A stretch of DNA of 64,000 nucleotides from an uncultured Desulfobacterales bacterium. GTDB lineage: Bacteria; Desulfobacterota; Dissulfuribacteria; Dissulfuribacterales; QOAL01. The position numbers were made by a program, and so were the translations under genes. A model generated the notes under the pieces. That model made no database searches, was not told the origin of the DNA, and worked only from the letters and a program-made list of their open reading frames with translations. The stretch covers positions 6,886 to 70,885 of the forward strand of contig CAZXAK010000041.1 of assembly GCA_964638145.1 (NCBI GenBank). The letters are read 5' to 3'. This document shows, one piece after another, positions 3,822 through 47,043 of this stretch. Within the stretch, counting starts at the first letter, position 1. The number at the start of each line of letters is the position of its first letter.

Positions 3822-3967
3822 GCTACTAAAAAGGCGGGTTTGGGAAAGTTGCATGAATAATGATTGTGCCCCTCGCTGGTTTGCCTGGTATGCAAGGGCA
3901 ATGAGACAGGCTACGCACTTTTCATGTCCTGAGGGGCAACCCTGTTGTCTCTGCTCACATGGTACCA

Positions 3968-4050
3968 GATTTGCTGCCTCGGAGTCTTAATTTACCTGTC
4001 TGGTACCTGAAGTACAGGTAGTATATCTGCATACCCCCCGCCTTGTATCT
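3968..4050. repeat. Interspersed repeat, internal module X only, no terminal repeats seen
   Basis: Reverse complement of 3997-4050 aligns to 22816-22868 at 41/53 positions with one gap (hand count); GATTTGCTGC at 3968 matches the GATCTGCT(G/T)C motif of the other copies. Confidence 0.75.
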
Positions 4051-4181
4051 GTAGCACCCTGCAAGCAGACAGATTTCAGACGGTTGTGCGATAATACCCG
4101 CAAATAACCCTGGGAGGAGTTACTGGACCCCCTGCAAATGTTGGGCAGGAAGGTCCTGATCACATGAACATTCAGGTTCTT

Positions 4182-10559: not shown

Positions 10560-10691
10560 CCTAAATTGAGCCCTTCAAATCATGTGTAATTTGGTATGAT
10601 CTGCTGCGTTTAGGGCACTTGAGGTACTCCTGTACGTCAGTGTGTCCTCTGGCCTGCATCTCATGGGAACCTGGGAATCGTCCAATTTAGG
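10560..10691. mobile_element. 132-bp MITE-like element (end A + module X + end B) between carA and carB
   Basis: Terminal inverted repeats CCTAAATTG (10560-10568) and CAATTTAGG (10683-10691); its reverse complement aligns to 22786-22890 at 77/104 positions (hand count). Mobility is inferred. Confidence 0.7.
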
Positions 10692-20260: not shown

Positions 20261-20995
20261 TCAGTGGTGCATGGTTACAGTCCTGAGGATTTCGTCCGAG
20301 GATATTACCCCCTGCCTGATGATCTTTACGGGGACAGTTGTCATGGCACCCTGCTGATGTACCGGCGTGGTGTCTGTTACATCAACAATGGTGGAGCAGG
20401 CCCCACTTGCCAGTCTTCCCCCGTCAAGCACAAAATCAGGGGCAGGAGAGACAAGCTGGCGCCTGACCTCTTCTGCGCTGACAGCAGCGGAACTGCCTGA
20501 TACATTGGCGCTGGTGGCCGTTATGGGTCTTCCAGCCGCGTGTACAAGGGCTGTTGCCCAGGGATTGCTGGAGATCCTTACTCCTATCTTTCCGGTCCCG
20601 CAGTGGAGTGGATAGGCGAGCCCCCGGGCCACTGGAAAGAGAATGGTGAGTGGTCCGGGCCAGAACCTGTCCATCAGCCTCTTTGCCATGTCTGGTACGG
20701 AATCCACTATGGAAGAGAGGTCTCCGATGTGGTCAATCAGCACCAACAGGGGCTTGTCCGCAGGGCGTTTCTTTATCTCGTAGATGTGTTTCAGCGCCTG
20801 GGGGTGGTCTGCCCCAGCACCCAGCCCGTAACTGGTTTCGGTAGGGAATGCCACCACGCCTCCCTGACGCAGCACCTCTGCCGCCTGTGATACAGCCTGC
20901 GTGTCAACAGGCCCTCCTGGACATGGTATCTCTTTGCAGTCCATCACGGCCGGGCCTCTGCGACTACGCACCGTTTCGTATACGTCCACTGTCAT
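20261..20995 (-). CDS. tsaC: L-threonylcarbamoyladenylate synthase (YrdC/Sua5 N-domain)
   Basis: [40 protein letters not shown]. Confidence 0.93.
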
Positions 20996-22764
20996 AGTTC
21001 CCTGTTTAGTTTTTCGATGTTGGCAGCCTGCGCAGCCCGAAATTCTTGTATTCGTCTTGCCACCTGTTCGTCAGTCACTGCTATGATCTGGGCTGCCAGC
21101 ATGGCGGCGTTTTTTGCCCCTGCCTTTCCAATGGCCATGGTTGCCACAGGAATGCCTGGTGGCATCTGGGCCGTGGAGAGCAGGGCATCCATTCCTCCAA
21201 GCGGCGATGCGTCAATGGGTACGCCTATGACCGGAAGCGTGGTATGGGCCGCAATGGCACCGGCGAGATGAGCGGCCATGCCGGCACCTGCAATCAGCAC
21301 CCTGATGCCCCTGTCCCGTGCGGTCTCTGCGAACTCTGCCGCAAGGGCGGGCGTCCTGTGTGCCGAGGCTATCCTGGTCTCATACGGGATACCCATGTCT
21401 TCCAGGACCTCCTGTGCACCTGCCATCACCTCCCTGTCACTCGGGCTTCCCATGACTATCCCTACCTGCGGGGCATCACCTGTGTGCCGCAGGGCCTTCT
21501 GGCCAATGTCCTTTCTGTAGTGCATGCCCTCCCAGGATATCTTTTCCACTGCCTCATAGGCCAGGTCGATGGCATCCTTTATGGTGTCACCAAGGGCCGT
21601 TACACCCAGCACCCGGCCGCCTGCCGTAACGTAGTCGTTGCCTGACCGGGCGGTACCGGCGTGAAATACCATGACATCATCCATGCCAGCCACCCTGTCT
21701 AATCCCTCAATCACCTTGCCCTTCTCGTAACTTCCGGGATAACCTTCAGACGCCAGTACCACGCATACTGCAGCACGTGGGTCCCACTCTATCTCAAAAT
21801 CGTGGAGCCGGCCTTCAATGGCCGCCTCTATTACATCTATGAGGTCACTCTTCATGCGCATAAGAATGGGCTGGGCCTCAGGGTCTCCAAAACGGCAGTT
21901 GAACTCGATGACCTTTGCCGTACCGTTCTTTATGATCAGGCCGCCGTACAGCACCCCTTCATAGGGACGGCCAGCGTCAGCCATTGCCTTTACCGTGGGG
22001 TTCATGATCATGTTCATGATCTGATGGAACAGGTCCGGATTTACCACAGGCGCAGGAGAGTATGCGCCCATGCCCCCTGTATTGGGGCCCCTGTCAAAGT
22101 CGAATACCGGTTTGTGATCCTGGGAGGTGGCAAGAGGGAGCACGTGTTTTCCATCGGTTATGGCCATGAAGGACGCCTCTTCGCCTGTGAGGAACTCTTC
22201 CACGATCATACGCTTGCCTGCGTCGCCGAATGCCCTCTGACGCATTATGGTATCAATGGCCTTTTCAGCCTCTTCAAGGGTGCTGGGGATGATAACCCCC
22301 TTGCCTGCGGCAAGACCGTCGGCCTTAAGGGCAACAGGTACGCCGGTGATGTTTTTTACATAATCCAGCGCCTCGTCAGGGTCTTCAAATACCTTGTATC
22401 TCCCTGTTGGGATCCCGGCGTTGCTCAGCAGTTCCTTGGTGAATACCTTGCTTGCCTCAATAGCTGCGGCCTTGGCAGAAGGACCAAATACCACCAGTCC
22501 CTTCTCCCTGAAGTAATCGGCGATTCCGTTTGCCAGCGGGTCTTCAGGCCCAACAATGGTGAGTCCGATCTGTTGATCAGATGCAAACTGGGCAAGGGCC
22601 TTCATGTCTGATGCCTTTATGTCCACACACTCCGCGTGCTGGCTGATACCAGCATTGCCTGGTGCGCAGAACACCTTCTCCACCCGCGGGCTTGCGGCAA
22701 GTTTCCAGCACAGGGCATGCTCTCTGCCGCCAGAGCCCACAACAAGAACTTTTCTGCAATCCAT
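20992..22764 (-). CDS. purD: Fused phosphoribosylamine-glycine ligase / N5-CAIR mutase
   Basis: PurD ([45 protein letters not shown]) continues in frame into PurE ([35 protein letters not shown]). Start moved to ATG 22764. Confidence 0.96.
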
Positions 22765-22785: not shown

Positions 22786-22890
22786 CCTGAATTGAGCGAT
22801 TCCCAAGTTTGCGTGAGGTGCAAGGCGGATGATACGCAGACGTACTGTTGTACTTCAGGTATCCGACAACGAAGCAGATCAAGCGAAATT
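22786..22890. repeat. Repeat copy (end B + module X, reverse orientation, end A absent) upstream of purD
   Basis: 22786-22805 CCTGAATTGAGCGATTCCCA is the exact reverse complement of 34222-34241; 77/104 identity to the reverse complement of the 10560-10691 element. Confidence 0.8.
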
Positions 22891-23034
22891 GGGAATCCAG
22901 CACCGGCCAGTCAATCTGCTTATACTACACCAGTTTTGCTGGGAATCAAACCGGAGGCATGAGTCTGGGGACATTATCCCCTGGCTTGAAGGTATCCATA
23001 ATGGTACTGGTTGGAGAGTAGGCCTGCTATACGT

Positions 23035-34124: not shown

Positions 34125-34241
34125 CCTGAATTGAGCGTTTCAAATCATGTGAAATCTTGTTTTGTCTTTAATTACAGTAAACTAATGCTGTTTTTTGTAA
34201 AATTGCCCGTCACCCAACGGGTGGGAATCGCTCAATTCAGG
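34125..34241. mobile_element. 117-bp MITE-like element (end A + module Y + end B) between def and fmt
   Basis: Perfect 13-bp terminal inverted repeats CCTGAATTGAGCG (34125-34137) and CGCTCAATTCAGG (34229-34241); 78/90 identity to the reverse complement of 39780-39869. Mobility is inferred. Confidence 0.75.
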
Positions 34242-39779: not shown

Positions 39780-39869
39780 TGGGAGACGGGCAATTTTACA
39801 AAACAGCATTAATCCTCTGTAATTACAGATAAGATAAAGTTTCACATGATTTGAAACACTCAATTCAGG
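39780..39869. repeat. Repeat copy (module Y + end A, reverse orientation, end B absent) upstream of hom
   Basis: Reverse complement aligns to 34125-34216 at 78/90 positions plus a 2-nt indel (hand count). Confidence 0.85.
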
Positions 39870-46867: not shown

Positions 46868-46922
46868 TTGTTCAGAACTTCCGGTTTGTTTGTTGCAGTG
46901 TACAACTGGCGTGTTGCTGGGA

Positions 46923-46945
46923 CCTGAATTGAGCGTTTCAAATCA
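46923..46945. repeat. Solo end-A motif upstream of comM
   Basis: CCTGAATTGAGCGTTTCAAATCA is identical (23/23) to 34125-34147; no partner end found. Confidence 0.8.
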
Positions 46946-47043
46946 GGGGAATATGGAGATAACGTACAGACTGTTAAAAAAGACAGCCTGTATGACTCAT
47001 CGGGAAAAGGGTTGTGAAACTGGAGCTTGCTGCAGGATTCCAT

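Follow-up and report, generated by a model that had tools for sequence, protein, structure and literature searches.

The hairpin studied here, X, is the structured, covarying core of MITEs, common to two families of these elements, and its pairing is kept in the source lineages; it probably acts as a portable single-strand module. That the same core is carried by two unrelated MITE types was observed directly. In general, MITEs are recognised by their ends, whereas what lies between these is regarded as junk; in the X elements it is the interior which is the conserved part, against this usual end-based view. They represent a concrete and testable case of a portable structured module which would either help mobile DNA to spread or render its insertion harmless. 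Moreover, they are relevant for annotation, since the element amounts to about 1.4% of the genome, breaks assemblies at contig ends and is present in many promoter and leader regions.

In the window, i.e. the whole stretch of 64,000 nucleotides that was analysed, the X under study occupies positions 22798-22897 and is the ~100-nt hairpin core of a truncated MITE, whose parts are collected in Table 1 together with two further X-bearing elements of the window. The copy at 22786-22912 consists of the left terminal inverted repeat (TIR) and X, the right ~140 bp (module Y and the right TIR), usual in most copies, being missing; the 17-nt insert in the 3' loop which is common to most copies in the genome is also absent from it. 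It lies 21 nt upstream of the purD start, antisense to this gene, and the identical spacer was found in an independent ENA assembly. The copy folds at -36.7 kcal/mol (z = -3.6; 0 of 200 shuffles equal it), compared with -55.5 kcal/mol (z = -7.9) for an intact copy from another genome. It is a 3'-truncated, slowly decaying relic of a non-autonomous transposon of MITE family A, and probably has no dedicated function of its own. The purD gene itself (window 20992-22764, minus strand) is fused to purE, encoding one protein of 590-604 aa with GARS_N, GARS_A, GARS_C and AIRC domains.

Table 1. Parts of the X copy at 22.8 kb and further X-bearing elements, in window coordinates.
Feature	Positions	Strand	Sequence and basis
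Left terminal inverted repeat, family-A MITE	22786..22798	+	CCTGAATTGAGCG, IS1380-type end
5' arm, long outer helix P1/P1b	22798..22821	+	GAUUCCCAA.UUUGC.UGA..UGC; fold and covarying helix-1 pairs
5' purine-rich internal loop	22822..22830	+	AAGGCGGAU, consensus AAGGCGGA; near-invariant alignment columns
Helix P2, 5' strand (stem of the sequence-only reading)	22831..22835	+	GAUAC; sequence and fold
Central hairpin P3	22839..22856	+	GA-C-GUAC UGUU GUAC-U-UC; sequence and fold
Helix P2, 3' strand	22859..22863	+	GUAUC; sequence and fold
3' internal loop	22864..22873	+	CGACAACGAA, consensus GACAAC(R)(M)A; conserved phylum-wide
P1b/P1, 3' arm	22874..22897	+	GCA..UCA.GCGAA.UUGGGAAUC; fold and alignment
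Post-X linker remnant	22898..22912	+	truncation point; compared with full copies
Complete short family-A element, 132 bp, TIR - X - TIR	10560..10691	-	in alignment A1
Family-B MITE, 177 bp, own X core (the ~4000 copy)	3947..4123	-	IS66-type ends GTAACTCCTCCC...GTGAGCAGAGAC

The genome searched is a 3.04-Mb draft in 51 contigs, in which 181 X cores were found, spread over two MITE families, A and B, whose 297 loci make up 1.38% of the genome. Family A has IS1380-type TIRs (CCTGAATTGAGCG...CGCTCAATTCAGG); allowing up to 2 mismatches, 353 CCTGAATTGAGCG ends are present in the genome, and these form 99 facing pairs, with a main size class of 255-276 bp and shorter deletion derivatives of 52-240 bp. 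No transposase ORF was found between the paired ends in these 99 pairs. The 272-bp consensus of the family runs from the left TIR through the X hairpin, a short linker and an AT-rich second hairpin (module Y) to the right TIR, and the target duplications are of 5 bp (TATTA, TTACA, TGTTA, TGGAA and TCACA, identified by eye in over 10 copies). Family B, with its own X core, measures ~177 bp and has IS66-type ends (GTAACTCCTCACAGGG...CCCTGTGAGCAGATAC) as well as 8-bp target duplications, which are perfect in 8 of 34 copies and differ at a single base in several others. Elements consisting of X only are hairpins of 120-132 bp. Both families show the characteristics of MITEs, namely TIRs, target duplications of fixed length, a small, non-coding and multi-copy nature, and ends like those of autonomous IS elements in relatives. 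About 87% of the X cores are intergenic, compared with an estimated 14% of non-coding DNA. An exact 20-mer scan for the TIR in 185,579 species genomes, with the window's own excluded, gave two chance matches only.

The coding potential of X was also considered and rejected: an ATG-led frame occurs in some copies, the start is absent in family B, and the loop lengths vary by 1-2 nt, through indels which are not multiples of three and which shift the frame. As regards the assembly, many contigs start or stop inside these repeats (e.g. C8:56-179, C48:56-179, C21:124-247 and C51:48-188). The MITEs are a main cause of the assembly breaks, and copies of autonomous IS elements may have dropped out of the bin. 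A further observation concerns the 17-nt insert (AGGTAAGCGAAGACTCCG) in the 3' internal loop of X, the sequence of which complements that of the conserved 5' loop (CGGAG/CTCCG). In this genome, 68 of the 84 family-A and 36 of the 50 family-B copies carry the insert, as do 0 of 72 copies from other genomes; within the window, it is found in the copy at 3947-4123 and is absent from those at 22786-22912 and 10560-10691. Since both families have the insert and the rest of the core is family-specific, short-tract exchange between the two MITE families is indicated in this lineage.

The ends of families A and B match those of IS1380 and IS66 elements, respectively, so that X rides two vehicles moved by different enzymes. 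In the relatives G006 and G033, IS1380-family transposase loci (NCBIfam model) are flanked by CCCGGATTATGCAGC-type ends, CCCGGATTATGCAGC being the version of the family-A TIR found in these relatives. A 1,672-bp IS1380-type element of G006 (contig C50, locus L154, 1218-2889) has A-type ends and three in-frame TGA codons in the transposase frame and is probably a decayed autonomous partner. In same-genus genomes, IS66 transposase genes lie inside elements starting with GTAAGCG, and a 2,448-bp IS66-family element of one same-genus genome (G001, contig C132, locus L145, 1306-3753) has GTAAGCGCTT ends and an 8-bp duplication, TATTTTAC. The family-B ends in relatives read GTAAGCGTTTACAGGG, and an IS66-family inverted repeat starting with GTAAGCGT has been described (PMC12888890). 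Profile searches (PF03050, NF033539) detected no autonomous IS1380 or IS66 element in this assembly, and no X was found inside the IS66 copies of relatives.

X folds into three coaxial helices, P1/P1b, P2 and P3, separated by a tandem G.A motif (AGAU/AGAU) and by two purine-rich internal loops, AAGGCGGA and GACAACRMA, both of which keep their sequence phylum-wide in the alignments. In the window copy, the conserved AGAU of the 3' arm faces the 5' arm, and direct reading places GTAC-TGTT-GTAC at 22842-22853. The sequence-only reading had started from three copies and had pointed to compensatory substitutions in one stem, which direct reading confirmed as GATAC at 22831-22835 and GTATC at 22859-22863. 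The changes it described are indeed present: the copy at 10560, on the minus strand, reads GACAC...GTGCC, where T-A has become C-G, plus one A.C mismatch, and the ~4000 copy, likewise in minus orientation, shows GGTAT...GTACC around ATAC-N5-GTAC, where A-T has become G-C, plus one U.G. It had counted about 74-77% identity among the three copies by hand; for the 22.8-kb and 10.6-kb copies, BLAST gave 73.4% over 109 nt.

The main covariation set comprised 73 sequences (alignment A1), aligned without reference to structure and evaluated with a 33-pair structure. Paired cells reached 92.9%, compared with 79.7% after shuffling, cells altered on both sides numbered 272, compared with 73.7, and the covariation score was 0.396, compared with 0.165; 0 of 500 shuffles were as high in each case, and slid controls gave at most 43% of paired cells and a score of at most 0.092. 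Changes on both sides affected 20 of the 33 pairs, among them 5 of the 6 P2 pairs, and RNAalifold, run independently, returned the same three helices. In 24 distant copies from the phylum, both-side changes extended to 30 of the 33 pairs (slid controls at most 0.123), in an alignment which was fitted to the model and is biased to structure. P2 alone takes six different, fully paired versions in the subfamily consensuses (GGAUAC/GUAUCC, GGACGC/GCGUCC, AGGGAC/GUCCCU, GGGCAC/GUGCCC, GGACAC/GUGUCC and GGGUAC/GUGCCC), and P3 appears in other genomes as GUAU/AUAC, GUAG/CUAC, AUAG/CUAU and AUAU/AUAU. Thus, the loops of X retain their sequence across the phylum and the helices alter by compensatory substitution, and real selection on a folded single strand is supported by these changes. 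The covariation noticed in three copies holds, in this way, with many more. A global G-test, APC-corrected and with a tree-based null in the manner of R-scape, applied to 206 copies, found no stem pair at E < 1; it was dropped as confounded, since its top scores were flank columns separating families A and B, i.e. subfamily structure.

To locate the selection, changes were placed by parsimony on a tree built from 206 distinct copies. Under a null with fixed column counts and weight-drawn branches, 21.5 +/- 4.0 co-changes on the same branch are expected and 26 were observed, which is no significant excess; of these double changes, 18 preserve a canonical pair, compared with 0-3 of 16-21 in slid controls. 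On internal branches there are 50 pair-keeping and 28 pair-breaking changes, whereas the terminal branches have 139 and 219, respectively (Fisher odds ratio 2.8, p = 8e-5), the latter including 90 changes from Watson-Crick pairs to GU, 95 to AC and 101 to other mismatches. Moreover, paired and unpaired columns change at the same pace on terminal branches (12.2 vs 12.6 changes per column), from which it follows that inserted copies decay neutrally; as pairs are kept on internal branches only, structure is required of the copies that multiply. Selection acts, then, on multiplying lineages and not on inserted copies. The sequence-only reading had proposed selection on an RNA or ssDNA structure, and this stands for the stems, which covary across genera, families and the phylum, but does not extend to the inserted copies, which are neutral. 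In other words, X has the covarying helices and conserved loops of a functional RNA, without purifying selection on each genomic copy.

The kind of mismatch tolerated points to the strand concerned. On internal branches, changes from Watson-Crick pairs to GU outnumber those to AC by 23 to 9 (two-sided binomial ~0.02, hand calculation), and alignment A1 contains 171 G.U and 64 A.C cells (hand sums of the per-pair tables). This G-U bias indicates that pairing is required on one strand, that reading 5'-CCTGAATTGAGCG. The intact copy folds at -55.5 kcal/mol on this strand and at -46.9 kcal/mol on the other. In many genomes a hairpin CCC-GNAG-GGG is found just 3' of P1 (alignment A2, L100-L121); read on the opposite strand, it would in several genomes be a c(UNCG)g, a classic stable RNA tetraloop, whereas G195 has TTCG as the loop of the X strand. 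The opposite-strand c(UNCG)g conflicts with the strand deduced from the G.U pairs.

The same complementarity could be explained by co-evolution of the two transposon ends with their transposase, both ends needing the same binding site, inverted, in which case no single-strand structure would matter. In fact, P1 is built of TIR-proximal sequence, which in family B is the IS66-type end itself, and much of the helix-1 covariation is the contrast between families A and B. Nevertheless, P2 and P3 lie ~45-65 nt inside the element, and yet all but one of the P2 pairs have changed on both sides; an identical core with conserved loops moves between two unrelated end types; and the asymmetry of G.U over A.C seen on internal branches belongs to a single strand, all of which leaves this explanation improbable. 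Pairing could also be restored without selection, by templated quasi-palindrome correction or arm-to-arm gene conversion at replication. Long imperfect palindromes are known substrates of template-switch mutation, and the 17-nt insert, common to families A and B only in this genome, reveals that sequence does move between copies. However, on terminal branches only 7 changes from mismatch to pair were counted against 212 breaks (hand sum), the paired columns there change as fast as the unpaired ones, and the asymmetric internal loops remain unpaired, with their sequence kept phylum-wide; such a mechanical origin is hardly to be expected.

Outside the genome, a BLAST search with the 272-bp consensus showed that other genomes of the order match only the X part (positions 16-83), in many copies each. 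A covariance model (R1) was built from a MAFFT alignment, and 80 foreign copies were fetched. With R1, X was detected in 49 of 69 genomes of the order, representing 17 of 24 genera, often with at least 52 matches per genome, and in 27 of 251 genomes of a phylum sample, several of them multi-copy and 23 of them additional to the order set. The distant copies retain AGAU...AGAU, CAAGGCG and CAAC..AG.AGAU, and every helix differs in sequence. No family of Rfam 15 matches X: the gathering score is reached in the window by a tRNA alone, and loci with X or of the Geobacter type gave no more than chance-level matches at E <= 10 or E <= 1. X is in none of the RNA or repeat libraries searched.

Among the known systems close to X are Gmet_R1001-R1024 of Geobacter metallireducens, for which the name "predicted short RNA elements" was used (Aklujkar et al. 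2009, BMC Microbiol 9:109, PMC2700814, Additional file 4). Like X, they are multi-copy and intergenic and belong to the same phylum. Their reverse complement has, as X does, a long outer helix, a 5' CAAGGCG and a 3' CAACGCAGAGAU; it also has GGAGG before a central GCGTAGC/GCTACGC hairpin, and one subfamily shows the AGAU/AGAU motif, as X. In 5 of 8 cases R1 aligns full-length at the exact Gmet loci, although as weak matches (E = 0.0013-0.43), with P1, CAAGGCG and CAACGCAG-AGAU in common. An nhmmer comparison of X with the Gmet family gave no significant similarity, and the latter, unlike X, contains extra internal hairpins. The Geobacter type is present in 17 of the 251 genomes of the phylum sample, which also assigns the genome of the window to Geobacter's phylum, and both types coexist as separate loci in some genomes. 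Gmet_R1001-R1024 may well be a distant relative of X.

As to what the core does, X would be a portable module acting as a folded single strand, RNA or ssDNA, of the strand 5'-CCTGAATTGAGCG..., and recognition of the ends by one or the other transposase would not be the source of the constraint on it. X might bind a conserved host factor, which would raise its chance of mobilisation, or might form a stable hairpin in transcripts, by which new insertions would be tolerated. One of these two, host-factor binding or a hairpin making insertions tolerated, is most likely, and the data fit both alike. A conserved factor may recognise the core, as the conserved purine-rich loops and the tandem G.A motif suggest. 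A more far-reaching proposal can be put forward only tentatively: X may be an undescribed functional nucleic-acid module, defined by AGAU/AGAU, the AAGGCGGA/GACAACRMA loop and P1-P3, which as RNA or folded ssDNA binds a factor or is active itself, and which spreads within the phylum (apparently Desulfobacterota) as a passenger of two or more unrelated MITE vehicles, the Geobacter elements being a distant branch of it.

A dedicated host RNA has to be considered in this context, X being then a purD leader/attenuator or a small regulatory RNA at its locus and the repeats paralogous regulatory sites. The copy 21 nt upstream of purD speaks for it, as does the short-RNA role suggested for a Geobacter family that may be related to X (Aklujkar et al. 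2009, PMC2700814). Nevertheless, this copy is truncated and antisense to purD, the copies have target duplications and stand beside unrelated genes, once inserted they decay neutrally, and no conserved neighbourhood was found in genomes with one or two X copies, which makes a role of this type very unlikely. Furthermore, X orientation in co-directional spacers shows no bias (41 sense vs 40 antisense), and this does not fit a host read-through role, unless both orientations work or X has a promoter of its own.

The resemblance to ERIC repeats which the sequence-only reading raised was not borne out, and an origin of X as a divergent branch of the ERIC/IRU family of enterobacteria, which is marked by a 44-nt central inverted repeat, can practically be discounted: of 5,426 E. 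coli genomes, 5,424 contain the true ERIC core, whereas X gave no blastn match in these 5,426 genomes even at E <= 10; the Smith-Waterman score of X against a real ERIC-bearing spacer (L093) lay within the shuffled range, the fraction of shuffles at least as good being 0.05-0.61; the ends differ; and the X elements have 5-bp or 8-bp duplications. The host range of ERIC/IRU (Enterobacteriaceae, Vibrionaceae and relatives) does not fit either, X being absent from E. coli. Of the layout invoked, the size (ERIC/IRU being imperfect palindromes of ~127 bp in transcribed intergenic regions) and the intergenic place do correspond, and a real ERIC copy contains the motifs in question, AACGCAGC and GAAGGCGAC, but in an order different from that in X. 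The likeness is one of kind only, that of a MITE-like, intergenic, imperfect palindrome of ~120 bp.

The reading of X as the covarying core of two MITE families can also be set against other known systems. The Correia/NEMIS elements of Neisseria, the ERIC/IRU of enterobacteria and the RUP and BOX of pneumococcus are, like the X elements, non-coding, 100-300 bp long and provided with TIRs and target duplications, and they are present in hundreds of mostly intergenic copies, with the whole element forming a long imperfect hairpin. Unlike these MITEs, the X elements conserve the interior and not the ends; this interior is common to two MITE families, one with IS1380-type and the other with IS66-type ends, and persists phylum-wide, with covarying stems and sequence-conserved loops. 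REP/BIME, REPIN with RAYT and the IS200/IS605-derived palindromes are dispersed intergenic hairpins as well, in their case read as ssDNA on one strand; they are much shorter, have neither TIRs nor target duplications and are mobilised by a Y1 (HUH) transposase, whereas the X elements have both TIRs and 5-bp/8-bp duplications and do not belong to the REP/REPIN-RAYT or IS200/IS605 type. Integron attC sites resemble X in being imperfect palindromes, recognised as a folded single strand, in which the structure and a few unpaired bases are kept while the stem sequence drifts. However, attC sites are grouped in cassette arrays next to an integrase, and X is dispersed, inside MITEs and without a linked recombinase.

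X also tolerates extra hairpins at one fixed site. Perfect hairpins which differ from one another are inserted at a single X site after CCGA(C), in L068-L072 (G019), in L083 (G025) and in copies on contig C14 of the genome itself, two examples being TCCCGCGCATCGCGGGA and CTGCCTGCCGGCAGGCAGG; such inserts would turn X into a three-way junction, in the manner of variable arms in structured RNAs. The right half of the 272-bp element, module Y, likewise forms a long hairpin, rich in AT and enclosing a smaller stem-loop around TTGGGTGA; it is found in the window at 34125-34241, 39780-39869 and 46918-46965 and also at L003:1501-1772. Module Y is conserved within the order and shows compensatory changes there (TTCAAATTATGTAG/CACATGATTTGAA vs TTCAAATGCCTGAG/CTCAGGCATTTGAA), and it contains a putative outward-facing promoter-like sequence, TTTACA-N19-TGTAAT.
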